From the NCBI GenBank assembly GCA_042408215.1, contig JAYFMW010000007.1:1-64000 (forward strand): DNA of 64,000 bases. The letters are read 5' to 3'. The notes under the pieces were generated by a model, which had not been told where the DNA came from, did no database searches, and saw only the letters and a program-made list of their open reading frames with translations. Every line of letters starts with the position of its first letter. Position 1 is the first letter of the stretch. Shown one piece after another: positions 1-27,800 of this stretch. Made by a program: the position numbers and the translations under genes. Source of the stretch: Microcoleus sp. GTDB lineage: Bacteria > Cyanobacteriota > Cyanobacteriia > Cyanobacteriales > Microcoleaceae.

Positions 1-3000
1 GTAGTGCCGGCATAATTATTACCAGCTAAGTCTTTAATTGCACCCGCAGCAATTTCAACGTAATAACCAGTACCTTGCGCTAAATCTGCCGTGGGATTAA
101 CTGTGACTGTACTACCGCTAACAGTAACATTAGCTGCGGTAACATTTATAGTTTCAACAACTGAGTTATCCGAGACTTTCTTGATGACAATATTGCCAGT
201 GCCTTTCTGTACGGCTTCACTCAAGGTGACAACTAAATTATCAGTAACTGCAACAGTAGTGGCGTTGTCGGCGGGGGTGAAAGTGGCGGCTGTGGGTGCT
301 GTAGTATCAGCCACGGTGGTGAAATTCCAAGTGGTTGCGCCTGTAGTGCCGGCATAATTATTACCAGCTAAGTCTTGAATTGCACCGCTGGCAATTTCAA
401 CGTAATAATCAGTACCTGGCGCTAAATCTGCTGTTGGATTAACTGTGACTGTACTACCGCTAACAGTAACATTAGCTGCGGTAACATTTATAGTTTCAAC
501 AACTGAGTTATCCGAGACTTTCTTGATGACAATATTGCCAGTGCCTTTCTGTACGGCTTCACTCAAGGTGACAACTAAATTATCAGTAACTGCAACAGTA
601 GTGGCGTTGTCGGCGGGGGTGAAAGTGGCGGCTGTGGGTGCTGTAGTATCAGCCACGGTGGTGAAATTCCAAGTGGTTGCGCCTGTAGTGCCGGCATAAT
701 TATTACCAGCTAAGTCTTTAATTGCACCCGCAGCAATTTCAACGTAATAACCAGTACCTTGCGCTAAATCTGCCGTGGGATTAACTGTGACTGTACTACC
801 GCTAACAGTAACATTAGCTGCGGTAACATTTATAGTTTCCACAACTGAGTTATCCGAGACTTTCTTGATGACAATATTGCCAGTGCCTTTCTGTACGGCT
901 TCACTCAAGGTGACAACTAAATTATCAGTAACTGCAACAGTAGTGGCGTTGTCGGCGGGGGTGAAAGTGGCGGCTGTGGGTGCTGTAGTATCAGCCACGG
1001 TGGTGAAATTCCAAGTGGTTGCGCCTGTAGTGCCGGCATAATTATTACCAGCTAAGTCTTGAATTGCACCCGCAGCAATTTCAACGTAATAACCAGTACC
1101 TTGCGCTAAATCTGCCGTGGGATTAACTGTGACTGTACTACCGCTAACAGTAACATTAGCTGCGGTAACATTTATAGTTTCAACAACTGAGTTATCCGAG
1201 ACTTTCTTGATGACAATATTGCCAGTGCCTTTTTGCACGGCTTCACTCAAGGTGACAACTAAATTATCAGTAACTGCAACAGTAGTGGCGTTGTCGGCGG
1301 GGGTGAAAGTGGCGGCTGTGGGTGCTGTAGTATCAGCCACGGTGGTGAAATTCCAAGTGGTTGCGCCTGTAGTGCCGGCATAATTATTACCAGCTAAGTC
1401 TTTAATTGCACCCGCAGCAATTTCAACGTAATAACCAGTACCTTGCGCTAAATCTGCCGTGGGATTAACTGTGACTGTACTACCGCTAACAGTAACATTA
1501 GCTGCGGTAACATTTATAGTTTCAACAACTGAGTTATCCGAGACTTTCTTGATGACAATATTGCCAGTGCCTTTCTGTACGGCTTCACTCAAGGTGACAA
1601 CTAAATTATCAGTAACTGCAACAGTAGTGGCGTTGTCGGCGGGGGTGAAAGTGGCGGCTGTGGGTGCTGTAGTATCAGCCACGGTGGTGAAATTCCAAGT
1701 GGTTGCGCCTGTAGTGCCGGCATAATTATTACCAGCTAAGTCTTGAATTGCACCCGCAGGCAATTTCAACGTAATAACCAGTACCGTGCGCTAAATCTGC
1801 CGTTGGATTAACTGTTACTGTACTACCGCTAACAGTAACATTAGCTGCGGTAACATTTATAGTTTCAACAACTGAGTTATCCGAGACTTTCTTGATGACA
1901 ATATTGCCAGTGCCTTTCTGTACGGCTTCACTCAAGGTGACAACTAAATTATCAGTAACTGCAACAGTAGTGGCGTTGTCGGCGGGGGTGAAAGTGGCGG
2001 CTGTGGGTGCTGTAGTATCAGCCACGGTGGTGAAATTCCAAGTGGTTGCGCCTGTAGTGCCGGCATAATTATTACCAGCTAAGTCTTTAATTGCACCCGC
2101 AGCAATTTCAACGTAATAACCAGTACCTTGCGCTAAATCTGCCGTGGGATTAACTGTGACTGTACTACCGCTAACGGTGACATTTGCTGAGGTAACATTG
2201 ATAGTTTCAACAACTGAGTTATCCGAGACTTTCTTGATGACAATATTGCCAGTGCCTTTCTGTACGGCTTCACTCAAGGTGACAACTAAATTATCAGTAA
2301 CTGCAACAGTAGTGGCGTTGTCGGCGGGGGTGAAAGTGGCGGCGGTGGGGGCTGTGGTATCAGCCACGGTGGTGAAATTCCAAGTGGTTGCGCCTGTAGT
2401 GCCGGCATAATTATTACCAGCTAAGTCTTTAATTGCACCCGCAGCAATTTCAACGTAATAACCAGTACCTTGCGCTAAATCTGCCGTGGGATTAACTGTG
2501 ACTGTACTACCGCTAACAGTAACATTAGCTGCGGTAACATTTATAGTTTCAACAACTGAGTTATCCGAGACTTTCTTGATGACAATATTGCCAGTGCCTT
2601 TCTGTACGGCTTCACTCAAGGTGACAACTAAATTATCAGTAACTGCAACAGTAGTGGCGTTGTCGGCGGGGGTGAAAGTGGCGGCTGTGGGTGCTGTAGT
2701 ATCAGCCACGGTGGTGAAATTCCAAGTGGTTGCGCCTGTAGTACCGGCATAATTATTACCAGCTAAGTCTTTAATTGCACCCGCAGCAATTTCAACGTAA
2801 TAACCAGTACCTTGCGCTAAATCTGCCGTGGGATTAACTGTGACTGTACTACCGCTAACAGTAACATTAGCTGCGGTAACATTTATAGTTTCAACAACTG
2901 AGTTATCCGAGACTTTCTTGATGACAATATTGCCAGTGCCTTTCTGTACGGCTTCACTCAAGGTGACAACTAAATTATCAGTAACTGCAACAGTAGTGGC

Positions 3001-5420
3001 GTTGTCGGCGGGGGTGAAAGTGGCGGCTGTGGGTGCTGTAGTATCAGCCACGGTGGTGAAATTCCAAGTGGTTGCGCCTGTAGTACCGGCATAATTATTA
3101 CCAGCTAAGTCTTTAATTGCACCCGCAGCAATTTCAACGTAATAACCAGTACCTTGCGCTAAATCTGCCGTGGGATTAACTGTGACTGTACTACCGCTAA
3201 CAGTAACATTAGCTGCGGTAACATTTATAGTTTCAACAACTGAGTTATCCGAGACTTTCTTGATGACAATATTGCCAGTGCCTTTTTGTACGGCTTCACT
3301 CAAGGTGACAACTAAATTAGCCGCCACTGCAACAGTAGTGGCGTTGTCGGCGGGGGTGAAAGTGGCGGCTGTGGGTGCTGTAGTATCAGCCACGGTGGTG
3401 AAATTCCAAGTGGTTGCGCCTGTAGTGCCGGCATAATTATTACCAGCTAAGTCTTTAATTGCACCCGCAGCAATTTCAACGTAATAACCAGTACCTTGCG
3501 CTAAATCTGCCGTGGGATTAACTGTGACTGTACTACCGCTAACAGTAACATTAGCTGCGGTAACATTTATAGTTTCAACAACTGAGTTATCCGAGACTTT
3601 CTTGATGACAATATTGCCAGTGCCTTTCTGTACGGCTTCACTCAAGGTGACAACTAAATTATCAGTAACTGCAACAGTAGTGGCGTTGTCGGCGGGGGTG
3701 AAAGTGGCGGCTGTGGGTGCTGTAGTATCAGCCACGGTGGTGAAATTCCAAGTGGTTGCGCCTGTAGTACCGGCATAATTATTACCAGCTAAGTCTTTAA
3801 TTGCACCCGCAGCAATTTCAACGTAATAACCAGTACCTTGCGCTAAATCTGCCGTGGGATTAACTGTGACTGTACTACCGCTAACAGTAACATTAGCTGC
3901 GGTAACATTTATAGTTTCAACAACTGAGTTATCCGAGACTTTCTTGATGACAATATTGCCAGTGCCTTTCTGTACGGCTTCACTCAAGGTGACAACTAAA
4001 TTATCAGTAACTGCAACAGTAGTGGCGTTGTCGGCGGGGGTGAAAGTGGCGGCTGTGGGTGCTGTAGTATCAGCCACGGTGGTGAAATTCCAAGTGGTTG
4101 CGCCTGTAGTGCCGGCATAATTATTACCAGCTAAGTCTTTAATTGCACCCGCAGCAATTTCAACGTAATAACCAGTACCTTGCGCTAAATCTGCCGTGGG
4201 ATTAACTGTGACTGTACTACCGCTAACAGTAACATTAGCTGCGGTAACATTTATAGTTTCAACAACTGAGTTATCCGAGACTTTCTTGATGACAATATTG
4301 CCAGTGCCTTTTTGTACGGCTTCACTCAAGGTGACAACTAAATTAGCCGCCACTGCAACAGTAGTGGCGTTGTCGGCGGGGGTGAAAGTGGCGGCTGTGG
4401 GTGCTGTAGTATCAGCCACGGTGGTGAAATTCCAAGTGGTTGCGCCTGTAGTGCCGGCATAATTATTACCAGCTAAGTCTTTAATTGCACCCGCAGCAAT
4501 TTCAACGTAATAACCAGTACCTTGCGCTAAATCTGCCGTGGGATTAACTGTGACTGTACTACCGCTAACAGTAACATTAGCTGCGGTAACATTTATAGTT
4601 TCAACAACTGAGTTATCCGAGACTTTCTTGATGACAATATTGCCAGTGCCTTTCTGTACGGCTTCACTCAAGGTGACAACTAAATTATCAGTAACTGCAA
4701 CAGTAGTGGCGTTGTCGGCGGGGGTGAAAGTGGCGGCTGTGGGTGCTGTAGTATCAGCCACGGTGGTGAAATTCCAAGTGGTTGCGCCTGTAGTGCCGGC
4801 ATAATTATTACCAGCTAAGTCTTTAATTGCACCCGCAGCAATTTCAACGTAATAACCAGTACCTTGCGCTAAATCTGCCGTGGGATTAACTGTGACTGTA
4901 CTACCGCTAACAGTAACATTAGCTGCGGTAACATTTATAGTTTCAACAACTGAGTTATCCGAGACTTTCTTGATGACAATATTGCCAGTGCCTTTCTGTA
5001 CGGCTTCACTCAAGGTGACAACTAAATTATCAGTAACTGCAACAGTAGTGGCGTTGTCGGCGGGGGTGAAAGTGGCGGCTGTGGGTGCTGTAGTATCAGC
5101 CACGGTGGTGAAATTCCAAGTGGTTGCGCCTGTAGTACCGGCATAATTATTACCAGCTAAGTCTTTAATTGCACCCGCAGCAATTTCAACGTAATAACCA
5201 GTACCTTGCGCTAAATCTGCCGTGGGATTAACTGTGACTGTACTACCGCTAACAGTAACATTAGCTGCGGTAACATTTATAGTTTCAACAACTGAGTTAT
5301 CCGAGACTTTCTTGATGACAATATTGCCAGTGCCTTTTTGTACGGCTTCACTCAAGGTGACAACTAAATTAGCCGCCACTGCAACAGTAGTGGCGTTGTC
5401 GGCGGGGGTGAAAGTGGTGA
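1..5420 (-). repeat. About 16 near-identical 342-bp (114-aa) coding tandem repeats
   Basis: Unit DTTAPTAATFTPADNATT...TWNFTTVA recurs every 342 bp. Confidence 0.97.
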
Positions 5421-6610
5421 CAGTAGGCGGTGCATCGACCGTCTCGTAGATGAGATTGCGGATTTCGTGAACGTCTGTAGAACCTCCCGTTGAGGCGGCA
5501 AAGCCAAATTTGAGGGTAGTTGGTACAGCGCCATTGCTAGTAGTAATGTCGAAGGGAGCGATAATGGTTTCACCCGCATCAGTAAAGCTGCCATTGTTAT
5601 TAAAATCCATCGCTACCGACAGCCGATTTGGGGAAGCCGCATTGCTTGGCGTTAAGATGATCTGTGCCCGTCTCAAGGCGGTGTTGCGGTTAGCTACAGT
5701 CCCAGCATCTATACCACCTTGACCGGCCACACTCACCGATTGCAACAGAGTGTTGCTACTGGCTGTAGATCCGCGAATCGCTACTGAATCTTGTCCGGTG
5801 CTGCCAAAACCGCCATACTCATCGAAGCCGATCCCTACATAGCCACCAATCAAAGTGTTGTAACCAAGACCTCCTCCACCGTTTCCAGCCGAAGTCGGGT
5901 TAGCTGTACCATCAACTAGGAAGAAGCTGAGCCCATCCCCTGGTGGAGATCCGACACCATTGTAGGCAAAGAAGTCAAAGGTAACTTTAACGCCTTCTGT
6001 GGAAGAAAGCGGGTTGTTGTAAAGAACAAAGCCGGCTTGACTTGTGTTAGCTGAAGTTAACCGCAAAGCACCATTACCCGCCGTATCGAGGTTCAAATTT
6101 TGCAGGGGGGTGTTAGGGGCAGAGCCAGCAGTTAAACCAGGGGGAGTGGAAGCACCAGCCAGCGCCCAAATCCAAGGCCCAGTAACGCTCGACCCTGTAA
6201 AAGTTTCGCTAACAAGAGTACCGAGGGTAGACTGGTAATCTTTTAGCACCGTTGACTTAAAGGCTAAGGGGCTTTCAATTTTTCCGGTGCTGTATTCCAA
6301 ATTCCAGTCGCCGCCTAGTGCTGCATTCCCCGTCTTATTAGTAGATGCTGCCACATCCGCCCCGGTGATTTCACTAAGGCGCTTTACGAAGTTTTCTCCA
6401 ACTTCTCCGGCTGCTACATCGCATCCATAAAGTAGGATGTCGCCATTTGCTGTCAGGGCATTTCCCCACTGTTTTATTTGAGTGCTGAAAGTTTCTAGGT
6501 TATGCTCATTGAGTACGTCAGCACCGAGTTTTAAACTGCCTTCGCTGCCGTGAGAAACTATATGAACTGCTTCAATATCTTTTTGATCTGCCAAGGCGTT
6601 AGTAATTTGG

Positions 6611-6659
6611 TCGATGGCGCTCAAATTGTCATTTTAAATGACAATTTGAGCGCCATCGA
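6611..6659. repeat. Perfect 24-bp inverted repeat with 1-nt centre, containing the premature TAA
   Basis: TCGATGGCGCTCAAATTGTCATTT-T-AAATGACAATTTGAGCGCCATCGA. Confidence 0.97.
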
Positions 6660-6914
6660 TGCCTTGAATCAGGCTTTGATAATCCTGTACAGAGGAGTCT
6701 ACGAAAATAATTTGCTTGTTCATAGTTGATAAGTTCATAATTGCTGAAATCCTTTATATCTATTGTTTACATCCAAGTCTGGGCGGGGTTGAAACCCCCG
6801 CTTCACAGATTCAGTCCTCGTTATGAGAACTGAAGAATTTATTAGTCCTATTGCTCAAATCAATCGATCGGTACAATTGTTAGCCCGTTCCCCTTTTTCA
6901 CGGGAAATGAACGT

Positions 6915-7566: not shown

Positions 7567-10500
7567 TTAAACCAGCCTGAAATTAGCCGATGTTATCGCA
7601 GTCGGACTCACTCCAACCATAACACCTAACTGCTCCCCTGTCAAGAGGTTTTTAATGAGAGTTCCCTGAGTATTTTGAGTGATTGCTAACTGACTAAAAC
7701 TCAAACCTCCGCTTAATCCAATCAAATCTTGACCCAGGGTAAAATCAGCGATGATATCAAATCCTTGACCCGCTTTTAAGACAAAGATATCGTTGCCGCT
7801 ACCGCCAATTAAACTATCATTCCCCATACCTCCGTCAAGCAGATCGTCGCCTTTCCCACCCGTGAGAGTATCGTTATCTGCGCCTCCGTAAAGAGTATCA
7901 TTTCCGGCACACCCTCCCAGGATATCTGCTCCTGCGTCACCGTTGATTAAGTCATTACCTTCGCCACCGCAGATGGTATCATCTCCATCCTGTCCAAACA
8001 GGTTGTCATCACCTTGACTACCAAGCAGGATGTCGTTACCTTTGCCTCCATATAAGGTGTCATTATCCTTACCACCATCGATGAAGTCATCATCTTTATT
8101 GCCATAAATGATGTCAGTACCTTCGCGACCATGTAACAAGTCATTGCCTTTGCCTCCATACATTAAATCGTTCCCAGATTCGCCAAGGATGATGTCGTTT
8201 CCTTCGTCTCCATAGAGGATGTCGTCACCTTTGCCTCCGGTGATGAAGTCGTTGCCTTGGTTGCCGTTAAAGATGTCGTTGCCGGCTCCACCATATAGGT
8301 TGTCATCGCCGGATTGGCCATTGAATATATTGGCAGTGTTGCTACCCAGTAATTCATCGTTTTTGGCAGTACCTATTTGAATTGCCGCTCCACCGATGAT
8401 GGTGTTTTCAACTGCATTGGGTTGATTGAATTTGGGATAGGTAATTCGATCGCAGATGCAGTCATCGTCTGAGAGGTTATTAGTTGTTTCCGATGGTGTC
8501 GGTGTTTCCGATGTTGTTGCTGATGGTGTTTCTGATGGGGTCGAAGTGGTCTTTGGTGTCGGTGTTACCAATGGAATCGGTGTCGGTTTTCCTGATATCG
8601 CAGTGGTTGATGTTGGGGTGACGGTGCCGGGGGTGGTGTCGGGGGTGGTGTCGGTGTCGGTAGAGCTCTCCGAGCCATATTGTACATTTTTGACAGTCAG
8701 GGGGCTTTCAACATTCGCCTCTGCAATCATCTTGTCAAAAGCAGCACCGGTGTTTTCAGAAAGCGCCTCCTCAATGTTCTTCGTACCAGCCCCCACTTGC
8801 TGGAGGTCTTTAGCCACCTCAGCTAACATCGCCTTTTCCACTTGAGCGATGCGAAGCGCTGCCTCGGCGATCGAGATATTGCTGGCTGCAATATCGCTGA
8901 TGCGCTGATTGCCAGCAGCAATGATTTTTGCCACATTGCCTGCTAGACTGGCAACTTCTGGCTTTTGCACGCTTTGGGCAACTGACTCAATCAACCTCTG
9001 CAACAGAGCCGGATCGCTCAAGTTTACAGGAGTTCCCGGCTCTACAACCTTCGATAACTCGCCAATGACCTTTGTGGCAATCTCCACCTTAGAAAGATTG
9101 GAGGCGTTAGCGAATAAATTGGTCACCAAGACAATTGCAACTTGAACCTGAACGTGCGGGCTGTAGATAATTAACCCAGTAAGTTCATTGTCCCGCATCG
9201 CTTCGATGGCATCGTAATTGCCCAAGTCAACATCTGCCGGAATTCCCAAAGCCGCCTGCACCTTGGCTTGAGCCTCTTCTGCATCCATTCCTTTGCGCTC
9301 TAACTCGCTGACCAAAGTCGTAAGCGGAGTGATGGTCGTACCTTCAGAAGCAAACAGGGGCGTTTCCAGAGGCAAATTCGTGGCAGTATTGATGCCACCA
9401 ATTCCCACCACACGGCCCTCTTCCGGGTCTAGGAAACCGCTTTGGTTGGTATCGAAATTGGGAACAAAAATATCTAAATCATAGGTGCCGTCAGCGTTAG
9501 TAATGGTAAAAGGTTCGTCGGGATCTAAAATTCCATTAAAGTTGGCATCGAAGAAAACCTCAGCCCCAGTCACTTCACTGTTAAACAGCTTTCCAATACT
9601 TTTACCGATAGATTTGCCTACTTTGGCGACTGCCTTCACACCACTGCTAAAGCTCTGAACGGTATCCTTAATAGCCGCTTTAGGACCCTGGCTAATCACG
9701 TTGAAGGGTAGACTAAGCACCGAACCCACAACGTCTCTGCCAGCGTTAGCTAACGTGTTGATCGGTCCTAATATGGGAGCCGGAAAAATCCTTTTGATAA
9801 CAGGGTTATTTGTTATAGCAACAGCTAAGTTTAAAGCGCGGTAAGCCGGACTATAACTCAATTTTGTCTGGCCGAAAGCCTTAGCGAATCCTCCAACTGT
9901 AAAGGATTTTGGCAGAACTGGAAAGGGCACAAACACATCGAACAAGCTGGGAGATTTCGATGTCCCTTGGGGGGCGGTGGAGTTTCCAGTTTCCCAACCA
10001 AATTTTGCCAGTGGGAAAGTTGCTAGGTTGTTCTGGTACAGGGTTGTCTTTAACGGCCCAATACCTGCTGTGGCTCGAATATCCAAGGAACCATTAATTG
10101 TGCCGGAAACTGAATTGATGATATTCCAAGGTTGGGCGCTGTTGAGGACAGTATCTATCTCGGAAGCTCGCAATTTTCCATCGCTTCTACCTTCTCGCTC
10201 TCCAACATCTCGCAAATCGACGTTGACATTTCCCTTGATTCCGCCCAGGATGTAAAAATCGGCTACCTTAATATCTGGGCCAGCTTTGGCAGCGAGATTT
10301 GCGGAGATTGTCAGTTCTGGAACATCTTGGCCAGTTCCGTCAGCGTTCTTGCGATCGCTGACATAAAAGCCATCTCTTAACAATTGGATTTTATCCGAGG
10401 CGTAGTTCGTTGCTTTCCACTGTTGCAGCCCGTAGGTGTCGTAGCCAAATTTTAGGTCAGCCTTTGCTTTCAAGTTTCCTTCAAAGCCTACACTCACCGG

Positions 10501-13500
10501 TGGGAAAGGAGGCAGAGGCTTTGTAATATTTATCGGCACATCCAAATCCAGATTGTCCAAATTCAGGGTCACAATTGGGACATCTGGTTTGCCTAAAAGT
10601 AGCTGGATGGCTGTTTCTGGCTTAGTGATAATTGGCACGTCCAGTCCATCAACCACCTCTAACGCTGTCAAAACTGCGGCAGCTTTCGGATCTTTTTTCT
10701 TAAGCTCTTCCTTGCCTATTTTAACGATAGCTTTAGCCTGCGGAGATGTTTTCTCGAACTCTTCTATCCGTTTTAACGGGTTGTAATTATCTAGCTTAAA
10801 AGAGCCGAGATCCATCAAAATAGTGTCATTGTTTTTGATGGAATCGTTAACCAGCTTAGTCACCCGGTCTAACTTGACGATTGTTTCTATGAAGCCCGTG
10901 GATATTGGTCGGCCTGACAAACTGGAAAGGGTAGAGACCATTTCGATGACACTGACCCGCTTCCGATTGTTATCTATATCCTTAAACAAATTCTCCATCC
11001 CGATTTTGGAAAATATCTGCGTGTCCGCATTCAGGAAATCAATAACTGGCCGAAAGGGTTTAAGAACCTGGTCAACCTTAGTGAAAACAGGTTGGGCAAT
11101 GCCGGTTATAAATTCGCCAAAATCCAGTTTTGCATTATTGACCTCAACATTGGGTATGCTAGCAGAACTGACGGAGTTACCGTTGACGTAATCAGCTTTT
11201 GGAAACCCGAACTTCATCTCGAAGACCAAGTTGGGGAATGCTTTGCTGACCACATTTGTCCGGCCTTTCAGGCTCAGATCCCCACTGGTGGAGAAGGTAG
11301 ACTGTGATAATTTTTGCGGGTTGTAGGAACTATTGAGTTCTGCCTCGGTCAGGCGATCGCCATCATTGATACCTCCCAGATTATCTAAGTCATTCAGCTT
11401 GAGCTGATATGTGCCGCCAATTTGAGTGCGCTTGCCTTGGGTGGTATTTTCGTTGAGGGTGGCTGGGAAAAATCCTAGTTTTGCAGAAGTCTTGAACGAG
11501 TCATTTAGACCAAACCCCAGGTTAGTCGTCAGATTCGTTTTGCTGGTATTGATATAGTTGCCAAAAGTTTTGCTGTTACCCAGGCTGAAGTTTAACTGAT
11601 AATCGAGGTTGGCATTGCCATTACCATCGGCGTTAAAGCCAAGGGCAGGCATTCCTATGTCTTTGAGGACGTTAACTGTACCGAGTTGATATTTCCGGCC
11701 TACTGCAATATCCCAGGTGCTTTCCTCATTAGTGGTATTCTTTTGAACCGTAATGTTGAAGTTAGCTCCTAGAGAATTCCGCAGGTTGGTTTGCAACTGC
11801 TCTGCCGTTAAATCGCTTCCTGTTTTCAGCGCATTAACGAGGCTATTTTTGAAGCTACCAATAAAATCTTGATTGAGGTTCTGGAAGGGGCCGACAATGG
11901 GGAGTTTAATACTTTGCTGTTCTTTTTTTACGATTTCGTCCAGCTTGGCCAATCCCTTTTCTACAATATCGGCGGGGGTGAAACTGGCGGCTGTAGGTGG
12001 TGTGGTATCAGGGGCGACAGCAGTGGTAAAATTCCAAGTAGTTGCACCTGTAGTGCCGACATAATTATTACCTGCTAAGTCTTTAATTGCACCGGCCGCA
12101 ATTTCAACGTAGTAACCAGTACCATCAACTAAATCTGCCGTGGGATTAACTGTGACTGTACTACCGCTAACAGTAACATTAGCTGCGGTAACATTGATAG
12201 TTTCTACAACTGAGTTGTCGGAGGATTTTTTGATGACAATATTGCCAGTGCCTTTTTGTACGGCTTCACTCAAGGTGACAACTAAATTAGCAGCAACTGC
12301 AACAGTAGTGGCGTTATCTGCGGGGGTGAAAGTGGCAGTAGGTGGTGTGGTATCAGGGGCGACAGCAGTGGTAAAATTCCAAGTAGTTGCACCTGTAGTG
12401 CCGACATAATTATTACCTGCTAAGTCTTGAATTGCACCGGCCGCAATTTCAACGTAGTAACCAGTACCATTAACCAAGTCGAGAGTTGGATTAACTGTGA
12501 CTGTACTACCGCTAACAGTAACATTAGCTGCGGTAACATTGATAGTTTCTACAACTGAGTTGTCGGAGGATTTTTTGATGACAATATTGCCAGTGCCTTT
12601 TTGTACGGCTTCACTCAAGGTGACAACTAAATTAGCAGCAACTGCAACAGTAGTGGCGTTATCTGCGGGGGTGAAAGTGGCAGTAGGTGGTGTGGTATCA
12701 GGGGCGACAGCAGTGGTAAAATTCCAAGTAGTTGCACCTGTAGTGCCGACATAATTATTACCTGCTAAGTCTTGAATTGCACCGGCCGCAATTTCAACGT
12801 AGTAACCAGTACCATTAACCAAGTCGAGAGTTGGATTAACTGTGACTGTACTACCGCTAACAGTAACATTAGCTGCGGTAACATTGATAGTTTCTACAAC
12901 TGAGTTGTCGGAGGATTTTTTGATGACAATATTGCCAGTGCCTTTTTGGACAGCTTCACTCAAGGTGACAACTAAATTAGCAGCAACTGCAACAGTAGTG
13001 GCGTTATCTGCGGGGGTGAAAGTGGCAGTAGGTGGTGTGGTATCAGGGGCGACAGCAGTGGTAAAATTCCAAGTAGTTGCGCCTGTAGTGCCTGCATAAT
13101 TATTACCTGCTAAGTCTTTAATTGCACCGACCGCAATTTCAACGTAGTAACCAGTACCTTGTGCTAAATCTGCCGTGGGATTAACTGTGACGCTACTACC
13201 GCTAACTGTGACATTTGTGGAAGTAACATTGATAGTTTCTACAACTGAGTTGTCGGAGGATTTTTTGATGACAATATTGCCAGTGCCTTTTTGGACAGCT
13301 TCACTCAAGGTGACAACTAAATTAGCAGCAACTGCAACAGTAGTGGCGTTATCTGCGGGGGTGAAAGTGGCAGTAGGTGGTGTGGTATCAGGGGCGACAG
13401 CAGTGGTAAAATTCCAAGTAGTTGCGCCTGTAGTGCCTGCATAATTATTACCTGCTAAGTCTTTAATTGCACCGGCCGCAATTTCAACGTAGTAACCAGT

Positions 13501-16500
13501 ACCTTGTGCTAAATCTGCCGTGGGATTAACTGTGACGCTACTACCGCTAACTGTGACATTTGTGGAAGTAACATTGATAGTTTCTACAACTGAGTTGTCG
13601 GAGGATTTTTTGATGACAATATTGCCAGTGCCTTTTTGGACAGCTTCACTCAAGGTGACAACTAAATTAGCAGCAACTGCAACAGTAGTGGCGTTATCTG
13701 CGGGGGTGAAAGTGGCAGTAGGTGGTGTGGTATCAGGGGCGACAGCAGTGGTAAAATTCCAAGTAGTTGCGCCTGTAGTGCCGACATAATTATTACCTGC
13801 TAAGTCTTGAATTGCACCAGCGGCAATTTCAACGTAGTAACCAGTACCATCAACTAAATCAAGATTGGGATTAACGGTGACGGTACTACCACTAACTGTG
13901 ACATTGGCTGAAGCAACATCAATGGTTTCCACCACTGAGTTATCAGAGACTTTCTTGATGATAATATTGCCAGTGCCTTTTTGGACTGCTTCACTCAAGG
14001 TGACAACTGCATTAGCAGCAACGGCAATATTAGTGGCGTTATTTACAGGTGTGAAAGTGGTGGCTGTAGGCGCTGTGGTGTCAGCAGTGGTGAATTTCCA
14101 AGCAGTTGCACCTGTAGTGCCGGCGTAATTATTACCAGCTAAGTCTTTAATTGCACCGGCCGCAATTTCAACGTAGTAACCAGTACCATCAACTAAATCA
14201 AGATTGGGATTAACGGTGACGGTACTACCACTAACTGTGACATTGGCTGAAGCAACATCAATGGTTTCCACCACTGAGTTATCAGAGACTTTCTTGATAA
14301 CAATATTGCCAGTGCCTTTCTGTACAGCTTCACTCAAGGTGACAACTACATTAGCAGCAACGGCAATATTAGTGGCGTTATTTACAGGTGTGAAAGTGGT
14401 GACAGTAGGCGCTGTGGTGTCAGCGGTGGTAAAATTCCAAGTAGTTGCACCTGTAGTGCCGACATAATTATTACCTGCTAAGTCTTTAATCGCACCGGCC
14501 GCAATTTCAACGTAGTAACCAGTACCTTCTGCTAAATCTGCCGTGGGATCAACTGTGACGCTACTACCGCTAACTGTGACATTGGCTGAAGTCACATCGA
14601 TAGTTTCAACAACCGAGTTGTCGGAAACTTTCTTGATGACAATATTGCCAGTGCCTTTTTGCACCGCTTCACTCAAGTTGACAACTACATTAGCAGCAAC
14701 TGCAATATTAGTGGCGTTATTTACGGGGTTAAAACTGGTAACAGTTGCCCCGGTTTTATCAATTGTATAAATCTGACCGGTGCTATTGCCGTTACCAGCT
14801 CCCGTACCGCCCAAAGGAACACTTAGACTGTTAAGAATACTGTCGTTATCTGTGAGATTTAGCTGTACTGTGCCATCAGCCGTGCCACTATTCACTGCAA
14901 CGGCATAAGTGCTGCCAGTACCAGTGACGCTAGTAATAGCTGCATCGGTAATACTGACCGCCGCTAAATTAAAGTCACTTGTATCAACACCAGTAACGTT
15001 TTCGCTAAAGGTGACAGTATAGTTGACTGTAGCAGCGTTGCTGGGGTTTGCATCAGTGCGAACAATGCTGGCAACAGTCGGGATGGCATTATTGTAATTA
15101 ACTTGGTTATCTGTGCTGGTGCTGGCGGTAGAAGTATTGCCCCCAGCATCGCTGGCTGCATCGGCTTTCACGGAAGCTGTCACCGTACCAGCGGCAGTCA
15201 TTCCCGTGACGGCAACATTGTAGGTAGTGCCGCTCCCGCTGACAGTGGCAGTGGTAGCCCCAGCAGTGCCACCCAAAGTGATATCGGTACTATCAAAACC
15301 CGTTACGGTTTCGGAAAATACAACGGCAAAATTGACAGTTGAGGCAGCGGTGGGATCGGGTTGTCCCGCATCTTGGTTTATGGTGACAGTAGGAGCAGTG
15401 GAGTCAAAAGTACGGGTTAAGGCGGTGGTGGCGGTGTTGTTATTTCCAGCCGCATCGGTGGCCACACTGCTAGGGACATCAACTGTAACGGTTCCCTGGC
15501 TGGTGGGGGTGACGGTGAAGGTGTAGGTAGTCCCAGAGCCACTCAAGCCGCTGACGGTGCCGTTGGTGACGGTGATATCGGTGTCAACAAAGTTGGTTGT
15601 GCTTTCGCTGAAGGTGGCCGTGACGGGAAATGGGGCGTTGACTGTGGCTGCGGTAGCCGAAGTTAAAGCGACTGTAGGGGCTGCACTGTCAAAAGTACGG
15701 GTTAAGGCGGTGGCGGCGGTGTTGTTATTTCCAGCCGCATCGGTGGCCACACTGCTAGGGACATCAACTGTAACGGTTCCCTGGCTGGTGGGGGTGACGG
15801 TGAAGGTGTAGGTAGTCCCAGAGCCACTCAAGCCGCTGACGGTGCCGTTGGTGACGGTGATATCGGTGTCAACAAAGTTGGTTGTGCTTTCGCTGAAGGT
15901 GGCCGTGACGGGAAATGGGGCGTTGACTGTGGCTGCGGTAGCCGAAGTTAAAGCGACTGTAGGGGCTGCACTGTCAAAAGTACGGGTTAAGGCGGTGGCG
16001 GCGGTGTTGTTATTTCCTGTCTCATCGGTGGCTACCCCAGCCGGAACATCAACTGTAACGGTTCCCTGGCTGGTGGGGGTAACGGTGAAGGTGTAGGTAG
16101 TCCCAGAGCCACTCAAGCCGCTGACGGTGCCGTTGGTGACGGTGATATCGGTGTCAACAAAGTTGGTTGTGCTTTCGCTGAAGGTGGCCGTGACGGCAAA
16201 TGGGGCGTTGACGGTGGCTGCGGCAGCGGAACTGAGGCTGACAGTGGGAGCTAAAGCATCAATAGTTAAACTATTACTTGCTATGGGTGTACCGGTTTTG
16301 GTACCACTATCAAAGGTAATATTAGTTAAACTGGGTGCTGCTAAATTGATGGTATCAGCATCAGTAGGCGATGCAGCAATATCAGTAGTGACGAATAGAT
16401 AACCAGTGCTACCTTTAGTAATAGCTTGAGTTAATCCTGTGAAAGACAAACTACCACCTGATGCTACGGGTGCTAGGCTTGATAGTTGGGTATCGCCTAC

Positions 16501-18420
16501 ATCAAATGTGCCATCAGCCGAATACCACAATTTGAAATTAGAGACATCAGCCGCTTGATAAGTACCGCCTGTAGTGAGAGTTAAACCTGTAAGTTTGGTA
16601 TCCCATCCTGTCACTGCTAAGTTGACTTGATAGAGCAATTTATTGGTATTACTGGGGCCGACTGTCGCAGCGGAGATGGCTGGTGTGGTGACGACAATAT
16701 CGGGACTACCATAGCGGGCTAAAGCAAAGTCATTGTTACTGCCATTGTTAGCAAATCCAGCGACGACAATTTTCCCACTACTATCTAGGCTTATGGCAGA
16801 GATAATATCGTTGCTACTGCCGATCGCAGTAGTGACTTTACCATCAGTATCAAAAGTGGTATCCAAGCTGCCGTCACTGTTGTACCGGGCGAGGCCAAAG
16901 TCATCGTTACTGCCATTGTTGGCATACCCCGCCACCATTATTTTCCCACTACTATCTATGGTCAGGGCACGGCCTCGGTCGTTGCTACTGCCAATAGCAG
17001 TAGTGACTTTACCATCGGTATCAAAAGTGCTATCCAAACTGCCGTCACTGTTATACCGCGCGAGGGCAAAGTCATCGTTACTGCCATTGTTGGCATACCC
17101 CGCCACCACAATTTTTCCACTACTATCTGTGGTGATGATATCGCCTTCGTCGTTCCCAGGGCCAATAGCAGTAGTGAGTTTACCATCGGTATCAAAAGTG
17201 ATGTCCAAGCTACCGTTAGTGTTGTATCGGGCGAGGCCGAAGTCAAAGTTACTCCCATTGTGAGTAGGCCCTGCTACCAGGATTTTTCCACTACTATCTA
17301 TGGTTATGGCATTGCCAAATTCGTTGAAACTGCCGATCGCAGTGGTGACTTTACCATCGGTATCAAAAGTGGTATCCAAGCTACCATCAGTGTTGTACCG
17401 GGCGAGGGCAAAGTCAAAGTTACCGCTATTGTTGGTAAACCCCGACACCAGGATTTTTCCACTACTATCTATGGTCATGGCATTGCCAAATTCGTCGCTA
17501 CTACCGATCGCAGTAGTGACTTTACCATCGGTATCAAAAGTGGTATCCAAGGTGCCGTCAGTGTTGTAGCGGGCGAGGGCAAAGTCATTGTTACTACCGT
17601 TGTGAGCATACCCTGCTACCACGATTTTCCCACTACTATCTATTCTCATGGCATTGACTTGATCGTTCCCCGGGCCGATAGCAGTAGTCACTTTACCACC
17701 AGTACCAAAACTGGTATCCAAGGTTCCGTCAGTGTTGTACCGAGTGAGGGCAAAGTCAAAGTTACCGCCATTGTCCGCATACCCCGCGACGACGATTTTG
17801 CCACTACTATCGATGGCGATCCCTCGGCCTTCGTCGTTACCACTGCCGATCGGAGTGATGACTTTCCCTGTACTATTAAAACTGGTGTCTAAATCCCCTG
17901 CACCTAATACGCCTTGATAAGTTAATTGCAGATCCGGGGTAATAATACTAGGTGCAGATATTTCTCCTAATTTTACTTCTAATTCCCAATCCCCACCGAG
18001 TGCCGCATTCCCCGTCTTGTCGGTGGATGCTGCTACATCTGCCCCGGTTATTTCGCTGAGGCGTTTTACGAAGTTTTCTCCAGCTTCTCCCGCTGCTACA
18101 TCGCATCCATAAAGTAGGATATCGCCATTTGCTGTCAGGGCATTTCCCCACTGTTTTATCTGAGCGTTAAAATTTTCTAGGTTATGCTCATTGAGTACGT
18201 CAGCACCGAGTTTTAAACTGCCTTCGCTGCCGTGAGAAACTATATGAACTGCTTCAATATCTTTTTGATCTGCCAAGGCGTTAGTAATTTGGTCTATGGC
18301 GCTGGAATTTTCCTTTAAAATGACAATTTGAGCGCCATCGATGCCTTGAATCAGGCTTCGATAATCCTGTACAGAGGAGTCTACGAAAATAATTTGCTTG
18401 TTCATAGTTGATAAGTTCAT
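7567..18420 (-). CDS. 3617-aa DUF4347 / delta-60 repeat propeller / Ig-like repeats / RTX Ca-binding surface protein (likely type I secreted)
   Basis: DUF4347 N-terminus; about 7 LDTTFDTDGKVTT..GKIVVAG..FALARY repeats; two classes of Ig-like repeat; GGxGxD nonapeptides; RTX-type C-terminus. Confidence 0.92.
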   Translation of the reverse strand: MNLSTMNKQIIFVDSSVQDYRSLIQGIDGAQIVILKENSSAIDQITNALADQKDIEAVHIVSHGSEGSLKLGADVLNEHNLENFNAQIKQWGNALTANGDILLYGCDVAAGEAGENFVKRLSEITGADVAASTDKTGNAALGGDWELEVKLGEISAPSIITPDLQLTYQGVLGAGDLDTSFNSTGKVITPIGSGNDEGRGIAIDSSGKIVVAGYADNGGNFDFALTRYNTDGTLDTSFGTGGKVTTAIGPGNDQVNAMRIDSSGKIVVAGYAHNGSNNDFALARYNTDGTLDTTFDTDGKVTTAIGSSDEFGNAMTIDSSGKILVSGFTNNSGNFDFALARYNTDGSLDTTFDTDGKVTTAIGSFNEFGNAITIDSSGKILVAGPTHNGSNFDFGLARYNTNGSLDITFDTDGKLTTAIGPGNDEGDIITTDSSGKIVVAGYANNGSNDDFALARYNSDGSLDSTFDTDGKVTTAIGSSNDRGRALTIDSSGKIMVAGYANNGSNDDFGLARYNSDGSLDTTFDTDGKVTTAIGSSNDIISAISLDSSGKIVVAGFANNGSNNDFALARYGSPDIVVTTPAISAATVGPSNTNKLLYQVNLAVTGWDTKLTGLTLTTGGTYQAADVSNFKLWYSADGTFDVGDTQLSSLAPVASGGSLSFTGLTQAITKGSTGYLFVTTDIAASPTDADTINLAAPSLTNITFDSGTKTGTPIASNSLTIDALAPTVSLSSAAAATVNAPFAVTATFSESTTNFVDTDITVTNGTVSGLSGSGTTYTFTVTPTSQGTVTVDVPAGVATDETGNNNTAATALTRTFDSAAPTVALTSATAATVNAPFPVTATFSESTTNFVDTDITVTNGTVSGLSGSGTTYTFTVTPTSQGTVTVDVPSSVATDAAGNNNTAATALTRTFDSAAPTVALTSATAATVNAPFPVTATFSESTTNFVDTDITVTNGTVSGLSGSGTTYTFTVTPTSQGTVTVDVPSSVATDAAGNNNTATTALTRTFDSTAPTVTINQDAGQPDPTAASTVNFAVVFSETVTGFDSTDITLGGTAGATTATVSGSGTTYNVAVTGMTAAGTVTASVKADAASDAGGNTSTASTSTDNQVNYNNAIPTVASIVRTDANPSNAATVNYTVTFSENVTGVDTSDFNLAAVSITDAAITSVTGTGSTYAVAVNSGTADGTVQLNLTDNDSILNSLSVPLGGTGAGNGNSTGQIYTIDKTGATVTSFNPVNNATNIAVAANVVVNLSEAVQKGTGNIVIKKVSDNSVVETIDVTSANVTVSGSSVTVDPTADLAEGTGYYVEIAAGAIKDLAGNNYVGTTGATTWNFTTADTTAPTVTTFTPVNNATNIAVAANVVVTLSEAVQKGTGNIVIKKVSDNSVVETIDVASANVTVSGSTVTVNPNLDLVDGTGYYVEIAAGAIKDLAGNNYAGTTGATAWKFTTADTTAPTATTFTPVNNATNIAVAANAVVTLSEAVQKGTGNIIIKKVSDNSVVETIDVASANVTVSGSTVTVNPNLDLVDGTGYYVEIAAGAIQDLAGNNYVGTTGATTWNFTTAVAPDTTPPTATFTPADNATTVAVAANLVVTLSEAVQKGTGNIVIKKSSDNSVVETINVTSTNVTVSGSSVTVNPTADLAQGTGYYVEIAAGAIKDLAGNNYAGTTGATTWNFTTAVAPDTTPPTATFTPADNATTVAVAANLVVTLSEAVQKGTGNIVIKKSSDNSVVETINVTSTNVTVSGSSVTVNPTADLAQGTGYYVEIAVGAIKDLAGNNYAGTTGATTWNFTTAVAPDTTPPTATFTPADNATTVAVAANLVVTLSEAVQKGTGNIVIKKSSDNSVVETINVTAANVTVSGSTVTVNPTLDLVNGTGYYVEIAAGAIQDLAGNNYVGTTGATTWNFTTAVAPDTTPPTATFTPADNATTVAVAANLVVTLSEAVQKGTGNIVIKKSSDNSVVETINVTAANVTVSGSTVTVNPTLDLVNGTGYYVEIAAGAIQDLAGNNYVGTTGATTWNFTTAVAPDTTPPTATFTPADNATTVAVAANLVVTLSEAVQKGTGNIVIKKSSDNSVVETINVTAANVTVSGSTVTVNPTADLVDGTGYYVEIAAGAIKDLAGNNYVGTTGATTWNFTTAVAPDTTPPTAASFTPADIVEKGLAKLDEIVKKEQQSIKLPIVGPFQNLNQDFIGSFKNSLVNALKTGSDLTAEQLQTNLRNSLGANFNITVQKNTTNEESTWDIAVGRKYQLGTVNVLKDIGMPALGFNADGNGNANLDYQLNFSLGNSKTFGNYINTSKTNLTTNLGFGLNDSFKTSAKLGFFPATLNENTTQGKRTQIGGTYQLKLNDLDNLGGINDGDRLTEAELNSSYNPQKLSQSTFSTSGDLSLKGRTNVVSKAFPNLVFEMKFGFPKADYVNGNSVSSASIPNVEVNNAKLDFGEFITGIAQPVFTKVDQVLKPFRPVIDFLNADTQIFSKIGMENLFKDIDNNRKRVSVIEMVSTLSSLSGRPISTGFIETIVKLDRVTKLVNDSIKNNDTILMDLGSFKLDNYNPLKRIEEFEKTSPQAKAIVKIGKEELKKKDPKAAAVLTALEVVDGLDVPIITKPETAIQLLLGKPDVPIVTLNLDNLDLDVPINITKPLPPFPPVSVGFEGNLKAKADLKFGYDTYGLQQWKATNYASDKIQLLRDGFYVSDRKNADGTGQDVPELTISANLAAKAGPDIKVADFYILGGIKGNVNVDLRDVGEREGRSDGKLRASEIDTVLNSAQPWNIINSVSGTINGSLDIRATAGIGPLKTTLYQNNLATFPLAKFGWETGNSTAPQGTSKSPSLFDVFVPFPVLPKSFTVGGFAKAFGQTKLSYSPAYRALNLAVAITNNPVIKRIFPAPILGPINTLANAGRDVVGSVLSLPFNVISQGPKAAIKDTVQSFSSGVKAVAKVGKSIGKSIGKLFNSEVTGAEVFFDANFNGILDPDEPFTITNADGTYDLDIFVPNFDTNQSGFLDPEEGRVVGIGGINTATNLPLETPLFASEGTTITPLTTLVSELERKGMDAEEAQAKVQAALGIPADVDLGNYDAIEAMRDNELTGLIIYSPHVQVQVAIVLVTNLFANASNLSKVEIATKVIGELSKVVEPGTPVNLSDPALLQRLIESVAQSVQKPEVASLAGNVAKIIAAGNQRISDIAASNISIAEAALRIAQVEKAMLAEVAKDLQQVGAGTKNIEEALSENTGAAFDKMIAEANVESPLTVKNVQYGSESSTDTDTTPDTTPGTVTPTSTTAISGKPTPIPLVTPTPKTTSTPSETPSATTSETPTPSETTNNLSDDDCICDRITYPKFNQPNAVENTIIGGAAIQIGTAKNDELLGSNTANIFNGQSGDDNLYGGAGNDIFNGNQGNDFITGGKGDDILYGDEGNDIILGESGNDLMYGGKGNDLLHGREGTDIIYGNKDDDFIDGGKDNDTLYGGKGNDILLGSQGDDNLFGQDGDDTICGGEGNDLINGDAGADILGGCAGNDTLYGGADNDTLTGGKGDDLLDGGMGNDSLIGGSGNDIFVLKAGQGFDIIADFTLGQDLIGLSGGLSFSQLAITQNTQGTLIKNLLTGEQLGVMVGVSPTAITSANFRLV

Positions 18421-18540
18421 AATTGCTTAACTCCTTGATATATATCGTTTACATTCAAGTCTGGCCGGGGTTGAAACCCCCGCCTCATATCAATTCCGGT
18501 TGCACCGGAATAATATAGAGGACACGGCAGTGCCGTTTCC

Positions 18541-18687
18541 CTACCCAAAATAATCTTGTAGGGACACGGCATTGCCGTGTCCTAATTAACTACCCAAAAT
18601 AATCTTGTAGGGACACGGCATTGCCGTGTCCTAATTAACTACCCAAAATAATCTTGTAGGGACACGGCATTGCCGTGTCCTAATTAA
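18541..18687. repeat. 3 x 49-bp tandem REP-like palindrome
   Basis: GTAGGGACACGGCATTGCCGTGTCCTA core; units start 18541, 18590, 18639. Confidence 0.9.
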
Positions 18688-24839: not shown

Positions 24840-27800
24840 TTACAAGAAAGAGCCACTATTAAGAGCAGTTTGATTCACATTATAAACCACTCCCAAGTAG
24901 TTATTTCCCGATTTAATCGCCGTTGAAGCTACAGCAGTTGCACCATCTAAGATGATATTAACAGACTCAAAGGTTAGTTGACTGAAATTGACACCAATCA
25001 ACTTGATTTTATCATCGGAAGTGAAGTCAGCGATCGCATCAGCTTGAGATGGGTTAGTAGCGGTATATTGTAATACAAAGGTATCATTACCCGCACCACC
25101 GGTGAGCACATCGAAACCTCGATCGCCCCACAATTCATCATCCCCATTCCCACCAATCAAAACATCATTTTCCTTACCCCCGCGTAAGAGATCGTTACCC
25201 CCGCCACCAGTGACAGTATCATTGTCATTATTTGCACTCAAGAAGTCATTCCCATTACCACCAGACAATTGATCCGATTTTTTCCCCCCAAACAATTGAT
25301 CGTTACCATCACCGCCATCAATCGTATCAGCACCTTCGTTACCAGAGATGGTGTCATTATCGGCACTTCCCGTCAACTTATCATTACCTGATAACCCGAA
25401 TATAGGTTTACCAAAGGCTGATTGTGGGATACTGGTATCATCTCCATCACTCAGTAGATATTGGTTATCTACCACTTGATTTTGTGGGAAATTAGTTGGT
25501 TCACCGCGATCGATTTTATTGACGGGTGGTGTGTCAATTACGATCGCCGTGGGTGTCGGTGTGGGTGTTGGTGTTGTCGGTGTTTCTGTGGGAACAGGTG
25601 TTACCGATGGTGTGGGAGTTGGTGTCACCGTTGGTGTCGGTGTTACCAATGGAATTGGTATTGGCGTTGGTGTCGGAACCGGAACCGCAACATTAACGTT
25701 AAAAGTCCCTAAACTGGTAGCAGCATTAAAATTGCCAAGTGCATCTTTAACCTGACTTCCTTGTAACTTGACAGTGTAAGTTCCATTGTCAGTATCATCC
25801 CAACTTCCACCAGGAGGAATAAACGAATAAGTTGCTGTACGCGGCGTACCATTACTATTAGTATCGACACTGACAAATTTTGCAGGAATATCACCGCCAG
25901 ACCAATTTATCAAAACATCAGAACTATCCAAACTTGAAACATCAACAGCATTACTATCGCTGAAAGTCACAGTCAAAGTTTGACTGGTTCCTCCTGCTGT
26001 AGTAATGTTAGAAATTGCACCAAAGTTAGCAGTTGGGGCGGTAATATTAGCAGTGCGAGAAAGTTGAGTTGCTGCGGTATTATTATTACCCGCAGTATCT
26101 GTAGCTTTAGCCGCCGGAATATCAACTGTGACATTTCCATCCGCAGTGGGAGTCACATCAAAGATGTAAGTTTTTGCATTTACTTTAACAAAGTTACTCG
26201 CCGTTGCATTGGCTACGGTAATATCAGTATTATCAAAGCCGATGACATCTTCACTGAAGGTAGCAGTGACGCTAAATAAACCGTTAACTGTTGGTGTGGA
26301 AGTGGATGTTAAAGTAACAGTTGGTGCGGTAACATCAACAATTGGTGTGGTAATATTAGCAGTGCGAGAAAGTTGAGTTGCTGCGGTATTATTATTACCC
26401 GCAGTATCTGTAGCTTTAGCCGCCGGAAGATCAACTGTGACATTTCCATCCGCAGTGGGAGTCACATCAAAGATGTAAGTTTTTGCATTTACTTTAACAA
26501 AGTTACTCGCCGTTGCATTGGCTACGGTAATATCAGTATTATCAAAGCCGATGACATCTTCACTGAAGGTAGCAGTGACGCTAAATAAACCGTTAACTGT
26601 TGGTGTGGAAGTGGATGTTAAAGTAACAGTTGGTGCGGTAACATCAACAATTGGTGTGGTAATATTAGCAGTGCGAGAAAGTTGAGTTGCTGCGGTATTA
26701 TTATTACCCGCAGTATCCGTAGCTTTAGCCGCCGGAAGATCAACTGTGACATTACCATCCGCAGTGGGAGTGACATCAAAGGTGTAAGTTTTCGCATCAA
26801 CTGTGGCAAAGTTACCAACAGTTGCATTGGCTACGGTGATATCAGTAGTATCAAATCCCGTGACATTTTCATTGAAGGTAGCAGTGACGCTAAATAAACC
26901 GTTAACTGTTGGTGTGGAAGTGGATGTTAAAGTAACAGTTGGTGCGGTAACATCAACAATTGGTGTGGTAATATTAGCAGTGCGAGAAAGTTGAGTTGCT
27001 GCGGTATTATTATTACCCGCAATATCAGTTGCTTTAGCCGCCGGAATATCAACTGTGACATTACCATTCGCAGCGGGAGTGACATCAAAGGTGTAAGTTT
27101 TCGCATCAACTGTGGCAAAGTTACCAACAGTTGCATTGGCTACGGTGATATCAGTAGTATCAAATCCCGTGACATTTTCATTGAAGGTAGCAGTGACGCT
27201 AAATGGTGCGTTAATTGTGGTGGCTGATGCGGAGGTTAAAGTAACAGTTGGTGCGGTGAAATCAGCAGTGCGAGTTAATTGAGTAGCTGCGGTATTATTA
27301 TTACCCGCAATATCAGTTGCTTTAGCCGCCGGAAGATCAACTGTGACATTACCATTCGCAGCGGGAGTGACATCAAAGGTGTAAGTTTTCGCATCAACTG
27401 TGGCAAAGTTACCAACAGTTGCATTGGCTACGGTGATATCAGTAGTATCAAATCCCGTGACATTTTCATTGAAGGTAGCAGTGACGCTAAATGGTGCGTT
27501 AATTGTGGTGGCTGATGCGGAGGTTAAAGTAACAGTTGGTGCGGTGAAATCAGCAGTGCGAGTTAATTGAGTTGCTGCGGTATTATTATTACCCGCAATA
27601 TCAGTTGCTTTAGCCGCCGGAAGATCAACTGTGACATTACCATTCGCAGCGGGAGTGACATCAAAGGTGTAAGTTTTCGCATCAACTGTGGCAAAGTTAC
27701 CAACAGTTGCATTGGCTACGGTGATGTCGCTAGTATCAAACCCTGTGACATTTTCATTGAAGGTAGCAGTGACGCTAAATGGTGCGTTAATTGTGGTGGC

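Follow-up and report, generated by a model that had tools for sequence, protein, structure and literature searches.

SSR contingency loci switch surface-protein genes reversibly ON and OFF near their 5′ ends through slipped-strand errors of replication, with no enzyme required. In yeast coding DNA, intermolecular template switching homogenizes the arms of inverted repeats and inverts the spacer between them (Abraham and Hazkani-Covo 2021, PMC8604942), and template-switch hotspots at quasi-palindromes in E. coli turn an imperfect repeat into a perfect one by a templated multi-base change (PMC7202029), according to the available portions of both papers. A report on intragenic invertons (Chanin et al., PMC10028968), in the part of it that was available, sets enzyme-independent 7-bp flips apart. 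Spacer inversion itself is thus already known, from yeast; the new part, within the literature searched, is a palindrome whose centre toggles between stop and sense. That search, which placed most subscription papers outside its scope, found no palindrome-centred stop/sense toggle and no phase variation in Microcoleus, and the supplements of PMC8604942 and PMC10028968 may list cases that are short or that create stops. The palindrome-centre toggle that we describe here is recurrent and not a single accident.

The DNA that we analysed, here called the window, is the first 64,000 nucleotides of contig C7 of a Microcoleus genome (G000; 7.36 Mb, 30 contigs). Its genes 1, 2 and 3, all on the reverse strand, encode giant proteins in which Ig-like repeats follow an N-terminal DUF4347 domain; Pfam also finds RTX repeats in genes 2 and 3. 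Family membership (PF14252) was assigned by a Pfam match above the cut-off together with Ig-like and RTX repeats. From their domains only, these giants would be secreted, surface-located and adhesive. Gene 2 (7567..18420) is intact and encodes 3617 aa with DUF4347, DUF5122, Big_12, Big_5 and RTX domains. Gene 1 is broken into a 5′ part of 34 codons (6637..6738), which runs from an ATG common with gene 2 to the stop studied here, a body of 1634 open codons (1729..6633) with the remainder of DUF4347 and 11 Big_5 Ig-like repeats, and a continuation in a shifted frame (3..1769) with 5 Big_5 repeats that runs off the contig end. The shift is a 1-base insertion near 1760, in one of 15 near-identical 342-bp repeats, in which polishing is weak. 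These 15 Big_5 repeats occupy window positions 3-5200, and a single unit departs from the others at four places, one of which is the frameshift. Gene 1 may be a silent allele with a sequencing indel, or it may be a decaying copy. Gene 3 (24840..29897, ATG at 29897) has a stop after 21 codons and then 1663 open codons, which hold DUF4347, FG-GAP, Big_12 and RTX domains.

A structural model of the gene 2 DUF4347 domain (17899-18420 region; pLDDT 93) matched caspase, legumain and CHAT folds, with a solved DUF4347 protein as the best match, and His63 and Cys106 were invariant in 38 aligned ON copies. The model suggests that DUF4347 is probably a cysteine-protease-like domain; going by this predicted fold, it is possibly an autoprocessing protease of these RTX proteins. 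Elsewhere in the window, Pfam matches included Tab2 and an IleRS with a CAAD domain, both indicative of a cyanobacterium, and 34064-36292 and 58039-60774 hold a caspase-domain gene (Peptidase_C14, DUF4384) and an MmeI-type restriction-modification gene. A promoter and terminator scan around gene 1 gave no signal above chance level.

Codon 35 of gene 1 (6634..6636, reverse strand) is TAA, a state that we call OFF; its reverse complement, TTA, encodes leucine (ON). This codon sits at the centre of a palindrome, site A (6611..6659), with perfect 24-bp arms (6611-6634 and 6636-6659) and a 1-nt spacer. Forty-eight of its 49 positions equal their own reverse complement, and the centre is T at 6635 in the assembly. 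The RNA of this site was predicted to fold at -44.7 kcal/mol (z -12), with the codon itself as the loop. The matching quasi-palindrome of gene 2 (18293..18341) pairs at 19/24 arm positions, equals its own reverse complement at 38/49 positions and carries TTA at its centre (18316-18318), the ON state. Both sites lie in a near-identical 254-bp tract (6492..6745, equal to 18174-18427) whose identity is likely due to gene conversion and which holds six clustered differences within 23 bp (6613, 6622, 6623, 6628, 6631 and 6635). A sequence-only reading had claimed that five of these convert one arm of gene 1 into the complement of the other and that the sixth inverts the centre from TTA to TAA. Both points were exact, and the translations ILKENSSAID (gene 2) and I*NDNLSAID (gene 1) were reproduced. 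The flanks aligned slightly further than the claimed 118 and 85 bp, with 121 identical bp on one side (6492-6612) and a single difference (6677) in 110 bp on the other (6636-6745).

Relatives settled the polarity of this change. Near both genes in a tree of the flanks, copies carry leucine and an imperfect right arm of the ENSSAID/ENFSAID type (L085, L090 and L092 for gene 1; L081-L083, L088 and L089 for gene 2), and the perfect palindrome is not ancestral. Five of five arm changes would be complementary by chance with a probability of (1/3)^5 = 0.004, with their clustering not yet counted. The arm string of gene 1 occurs in the genome only in its own other arm and in the matching arm of gene 2, so import of the perfect arm from another paralogue lacks a source sequence, and the arm must have been copied from its own partner. 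Arm homogenization together with centre inversion supports the template-switch interpretation of gene 1 and is the signature of intermolecular template switching given for the yeast REG2 case in the available part of PMC8604942. An isolated, one-off substitution is ruled out by the five complementary arm changes and by recurrence at codon 35 across the genus. The sequence-only reading is supported but proved too narrow: both states recur genus-wide, and two further, unrelated palindromes behave likewise. Site A arms end at 23-25 bp at a CGAT/ATCG pair (for example, window 6611-6615 and 6655-6659), often forming CGATCG, which we take to be a HIP1-like core; protein constraint may set this limit on arm length.

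A tblastn search found three more paralogues in the same genome that stop at codon 35, each centred in a 23-25-bp palindrome with its own arm sequence (C20:618723, C20:140575 and C8:5210), and one further paralogue with a perfect palindrome and TTA (C20:123952, ON). Three of these four genes are also frameshifted in their repeat arrays. In all, 5 of the 15 DUF4347 genes of this genome are stopped at a palindrome centre, and a sixth has a perfect palindrome in the ON state. We then assembled 116 copies of site A, chosen by homology and not by palindrome pattern: the 15 own copies and 101 of 108 listed forward matches from 78 other genomes of the genus, with the 7 weakest omitted. Codon 35 was TAA in 24 of the 116. 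It was TAA in 20 of the 30 copies with perfect (23/23) arms versus 4 of the 86 with imperfect arms, which are most copies, a comparison whose Fisher values overstate significance because kin and gene-converting paralogues are not independent. The frequency fell with arm pairing, from 20/30 at 23/23 to 3/13 at 20-22, 1/37 at 15-19 and 0/36 below. Gene 2 has 18/23 in these terms and so belongs to the class that was OFF in one of 37 copies; the suggestion that it is primed for the same event is plausible. No other stop was found in the first ~175 codons of any of the 116 alignments.

On the flank tree, from which the palindrome was excluded, the 24 OFF tips required 22 state changes; this tree has 106 rows, the 10 most distant copies being omitted, and gene conversion among paralogues blurs it. 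Seven of the 13 perfect arm haplotypes occur in both states, and across these haplotypes the arms covary, staying complementary though their sequence changes. The clearest pair is L106 (ON) and L113 (OFF), in which the centre base is the sole difference over 118 + 2222 nt (2.3 kb); two metagenome loci, L220 and L239, likewise differ only at the centre over 295 + 989 nt (1.3 kb). In both pairs the ON and OFF alleles are equal in length and the inversion is the only difference. Metagenome loci picked by the palindrome pattern, and hence biased toward palindromes, were OFF in 19 of 30 cases and in 15 of the 21 perfect ones. In sequencing runs X2 and X3 the ON letter was present in all 5 contigs, and in X12 it was present in 3 of 4, these contigs being from relatives or paralogues and not from one gene, so that they showed no mixture of the two letters within one gene; the OFF contig of X12 (a 2062-nt Logan contig) was attributed to record 13 by depth arithmetic (114.7 - 88.9 = 25.8). 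Run X1 does not cover 6635, the best run shares 0.53 of the window DNA, and RNA runs share <0.21 of its words. Among the matches listed (150 of 384) in an order-wide PF14252 search, site A appears restricted to Microcoleus and its close relatives. Among those same matches, in-domain stops occurred only in G000 (3), G001 (1) and G029 (1), in a search that cannot show stops of the site B type described below, which lie upstream of the domain. The stop in G029, a different genus, is a TAG in a DUF4347 gene (L286, G029:C85) that is not palindrome-centred and was rejected as an ordinary stop. Named genome records with the palindrome pattern all belonged to Microcoleus, Tychonema, Kamptonema, Oscillatoria, Lyngbya or unclassified cyanobacteria (50/50).

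A genome-wide test for coding palindromes whose stop status changes on spacer inversion identified a second site, unrelated to site A in sequence and position. Site B lies in gene 3 (29813..29852), with perfect 19-bp arms and a 2-nt spacer at 29832-29833; codon 22 (29832..29834, reverse strand) is TAA, and inversion of the spacer turns it into a sense codon. Among 49 copies (30 loci, 18 regions and L018, with weaker matches omitted), every one of the 19 whose perfect run reaches 16+ switches between a stop and a sense codon; 15 are OFF and 4 ON. Their spacers are of four types, AA/TT, AG/CT, CTA and ATTA, all of which toggle, and they are carried on several arm sequences. The other 30 copies included 1 OFF copy, with 15/16 pairs. 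Four site B OFF copies have no in-frame upstream ATG in the stretch searched or a shifted 5′ end (L245, L018 and L243: none).

Site C is a palindrome-centred TAG toggle between regions 2 and 4 of an ECF-type sigma-factor gene, with copies at C17:105052 (L241) and C8:94702 (L242) of this genome and in L262-L264. Among 21 family copies it was OFF in 4 of the 8 with arms of 12+ bp and in 0 of the other 13. L262 and L263 (OFF) have the same arms as L284, L278 and L265 (ON), and one exception, L269, has perfect arms with a spacer that does not toggle. Such a toggle could switch the whole regulon of the sigma factor. Stop and sense forms are exact reverse complements at sites A, B and C, but the three sites have no sequence in common and show no sign of a recombinase site, and arms vary within each site.

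Such stops stand apart from the genomic background. The genome has 793 candidate internal stops; all but six have palindrome arms of <=7 bp, and the six exceptions, with arms of 12-25 bp, belong to sites A, B and C. In the retrieved loci (1.59 Mb, partly redundant), 77 of 360 candidates had arms of 8+, again all at these three sites. By comparison, 6.5-7% of short coding palindromes make a stop on spacer inversion, and not one of 2848 intact ORFs (4.33 Mb) contained perfect arms of 15+ around a 1-4-nt spacer. Two unrelated long palindromes lie within the first 35 codons of the DUF4347 family, and both toggle a stop. Other long palindromes of the genome (C7:69200, C10:139707, C20:581270, C30:108855 and C20:304526) were rejected as toggles because they lie outside long frames; three of these have perfect 22-23-bp arms (C7:69200-69244, C10:139707 and C20:581270). 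At C5:673192, perfect 18-bp arms with a 9-nt spacer lie in an intact gene, presumably TnpB-like by its motifs, in which inversion would create a stop. REP-like palindrome families with 14-17-bp arms and a variable 1-3-nt centre, some of them GTAG-ended, are abundant genome-wide (for example, window 18519-18680 and 60981-61334); some form regular arrays with 49- and 67-bp periods, and some are inserted in frame in genes.

At these sites the OFF form is nearly limited to perfect arms and turns up on many branches of the tree. Each locus exists in a heritable ON and a heritable OFF state, the gene being otherwise intact. Our preferred interpretation, with a probability of roughly 60%, is that template-switch spacer inversion at the palindromes serves to turn the genes of these giant, predicted surface proteins ON and OFF reversibly. 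The centre would be flipped by DNA-polymerase template switching during replication, with no dedicated recombinase: the nascent strand would copy one arm, pair with the matching arm on the opposite strand, copy the spacer backwards, overwrite arm mismatches (as in gene 1) and then return. An intramolecular fold-back would instead perfect the arms without flipping the centre. A perfect site could flip either way, and arm mismatches such as those of gene 2 would largely lock a gene ON. In OFF cells the product would be a peptide of no more than 21-34 residues that ends ahead of the invariant His63 and Cys106 of DUF4347, and the adhesin-like protein would be missing; mixed populations could then hedge between attached and non-attached cells, or between cells visible to and hidden from phage. 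Replication template switching as the cause, reversibility within a population, a null phenotype of OFF and a benefit of switching are what we infer from these alleles. Independence from an enzyme would follow from the absence of sequence common to sites A, B and C. Reversibility is suggested by the 22 state changes at site A and by an ON copy at site B (L183) that is nested in a clade, starred in our tree, with three OFF copies.

The best-surviving alternative, which we nevertheless consider unlikely, is a non-adaptive hotspot: template switching perfects quasi-palindromes and flips centres wherever selection allows, stops are tolerated in large dispensable genes, OFF copies are young pseudogenes heading for loss, and where a reversal happens it is a by-product. 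Template switching works without selection, and the available parts of two papers describe parallel, reversible flips in yeast (PMC8604942) and self-maintaining perfect repeats in proteobacteria (PMC5941160). OFF states lie mostly on tree tips, and OFF outnumbers ON at perfect sites (20:10, 15:4 and 15:6; p 0.10, 0.02 and 0.08), an excess expected if arm perfection and knock-out arise together. A knock-out also lifts the protein constraint on the arms, which alone would enrich perfect arms among OFF copies. Against these points stand the two long palindromes within the first 35 codons that both toggle, set against a 7% null and the lack of any so long in 4.33 Mb of other ORFs, as well as the existence, over sites A and B together, of 14 copies that are perfect yet ON, and the four spacer types of site B that all toggle.

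Selection on OFF copies bears directly on this alternative. Nearest-neighbour pN/pS over 140 codons was 0.27 for OFF copies (17 tips), 0.30 for perfect ON copies (14) and 0.33 for imperfect ON copies (55), although in comparisons of young OFF copies this ratio can stem from the period that preceded the flip. It was 0.17 for the OFF-OFF sisters L096/L103, 0.28-0.32 for the site B OFF copies L185/L187/L190 and 0.22-0.67 for other site B OFF pairs, with several OFF-OFF pairs at 0.4-0.7. Within the starred clade, the all-OFF group L181/L244/L184 gave 0.26-0.30 at pS up to 0.28. Whole site B clades are perfect and OFF over several species with values near 0.3, whereas a stop fixed since their common ancestor should give a pN/pS of ~1. 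Judged by these substitution ratios, purifying selection continues on OFF copies on average.

Second lesions favour the hotspot, with more per codon in OFF copies (5 in 25,730 codons) than in ON copies (3-8 in 98,822). Among OFF frames with a seen end, 6 of 11 reach the RTX end and 5 break early (4 frameshifts, 1 nonsense), and a further 13 run open to the locus end. Among ON frames with a seen end, 20 of 28 reach the RTX end and 8 break early, 5 of these within 111 nt of the sequence end, and only 3 of the 8 breaks resemble true lesions. Three of the five OFF lesions, that of gene 1 included, are single-base indels in the tandem repeats of this genome, whose unique genes contain 1 frameshift in 29,258 codons. 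Decay may thus be under way in some of the OFF copies.

A second alternative holds that OFF alleles are still translated, by read-through or restart past the stop with the help of the mRNA hairpin, which would make the palindrome an RNA-level dial between high and low expression. We regard this as improbable. The hairpins are very stable with the codon in the loop, OFF-OFF pairs show purifying selection, and the site B stop precedes DUF4347, such that restart at a nearby Ile codon would yield the whole domain. At site A, a TTG or GTG lies four codons past the stop in 19 of 24 OFF copies, but TTT or CTG is found there in the other 5, and restart would, according to the model, yield a domain that lacks its first two strands and one helix. 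Restart at the TTG created by the gene 1 event was rejected, since that TTG is not conserved. The site C stop separates sigma regions 2 and 4, and inversion by itself accounts for three different stops whose sense alleles are their exact reverse complements.

Less probable still is that the flips are real and reversible but are catalysed on hairpins or cruciforms by an enzyme, such as an HUH/REP-associated nuclease or a resolvase, or result from inverted gene conversion that involves different copies of the chromosome. REP-like palindromes of 14-17 bp, variable at their centres, abound in the genome, and PMC10028968, in its available part, describes intragenic inversions of the invertase type that create stops. 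Sites A, B and C lack a common sequence and their arms vary within a site, and the Pfam scan of the 27 window ORFs found no linked or cognate invertase. To our knowledge, spacers of 1-4 nt are far shorter than any invertible segment, and we know of no site-specific recombinase that homogenizes arms.

Finally, an assembly or library artefact, in which assembly or polishing puts the centres of perfect palindromes in the wrong orientation while every gene is in truth ON, has very little chance of being right: it would fit the near-confinement of OFF to perfect arms (at near half to three quarters of them), arms of 23-25 bp that exceed k-1 for k=21, a base at 6635 known from the assembly alone and indels in the repeat arrays of this genome, but OFF copies also occur with perfect runs of only 10-11 (L112, L114 and L135), 17-19 (site B) and 12 (site C), too short to mislead at the usual assembly k values of 21 or more, as well as in the single-contig genome G051 (L105 and L189) and, by depth arithmetic, in the one 2062-nt contig of X12 (Logan contigs use k=31), and the artefact leaves arm homogenization unexplained, perfect non-coding palindromes being irrelevant to the coding enrichment.

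If the switch reading is correct, a replication error long seen as a mutational nuisance becomes a genetic switch and adds a mechanism to the short list of those for phase variation. A palindrome toggle is invisible to scans for repeat tracts and resembles a single nonsense SNP in annotation, and many 'pseudogenes' with a palindrome-centred stop may be silent but live alleles. A scan of internal stops for palindrome arms finds such toggles with almost no background in any genome. Microcoleus is a dominant mat- and crust-forming cyanobacterium, and in this genome a third of one large surface-protein family is OFF in this way, which offers a directly testable case of the question whether selection ever favours template-switch hotspots. 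Even as a non-adaptive hotspot, these loci would be the strongest natural bacterial example that we found of recurrent template-switch knock-outs. On a broader claim our judgement is evenly balanced. Under it, the toggles would be a separate type of phase variation, not described before, in which template switching inverts 1-4 bases without an enzyme; it would have evolved at least three times in Microcoleus to randomize giant surface proteins and an ECF sigma factor, would be tuned by arm mismatches (perfect arms switching, mismatched arms locked ON) and would be routinely mis-annotated as pseudogenes.

Among described systems, the yeast inversions come closest in mechanism. In the available part of PMC8604942 they share perfect arms of 10+ bp, short spacers and reversible, parallel flips with the Microcoleus sites, and the flip of REG2 occurred together with arm perfection, as in gene 1. 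All ten cases in Table 2 of that paper swap amino acids, none makes a stop, and its authors call them non-adaptive. By contrast, the flips in Microcoleus, a bacterium, toggle stop and sense; they do so close to gene starts and at three sites that are unrelated to each other, and as many as three quarters of the perfect copies are OFF. The E. coli hotspots resemble gene 1 in that templated multi-base changes perfect an imperfect repeat, but the available text of PMC7202029 describes them as mutational and not as maintained two-state switches. Intragenic invertons, in the available part of PMC10028968, likewise add or remove a premature stop by in-gene inversion between inverted repeats, with bet hedging proposed; they are presumed to be invertase-driven and are longer (57 bp in one example, and up to kb). 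Unlike them, the Microcoleus sites invert 1-4 nt, their arms co-convert, no recombinase site is conserved across the invertible loci, and they are known here from assembled alleles and not from within-sample reads. With SSR loci they would share an enzyme-free, replication-error-driven ON/OFF change near the 5′ ends of surface-protein genes, but the change is a base inversion at the palindrome centre, with no tandem repeat, no change in tract length and no frameshift. At sites A, B and C the derived allele is the ancestral one with its spacer reverse-complemented, and in gene 1 the arm mismatches were replaced as one cluster by a copy of the partner arm (5/5). By these two testable features of its alleles, the palindrome toggle is a member of the template-switch spacer-inversion class, and it would work like a contingency locus.
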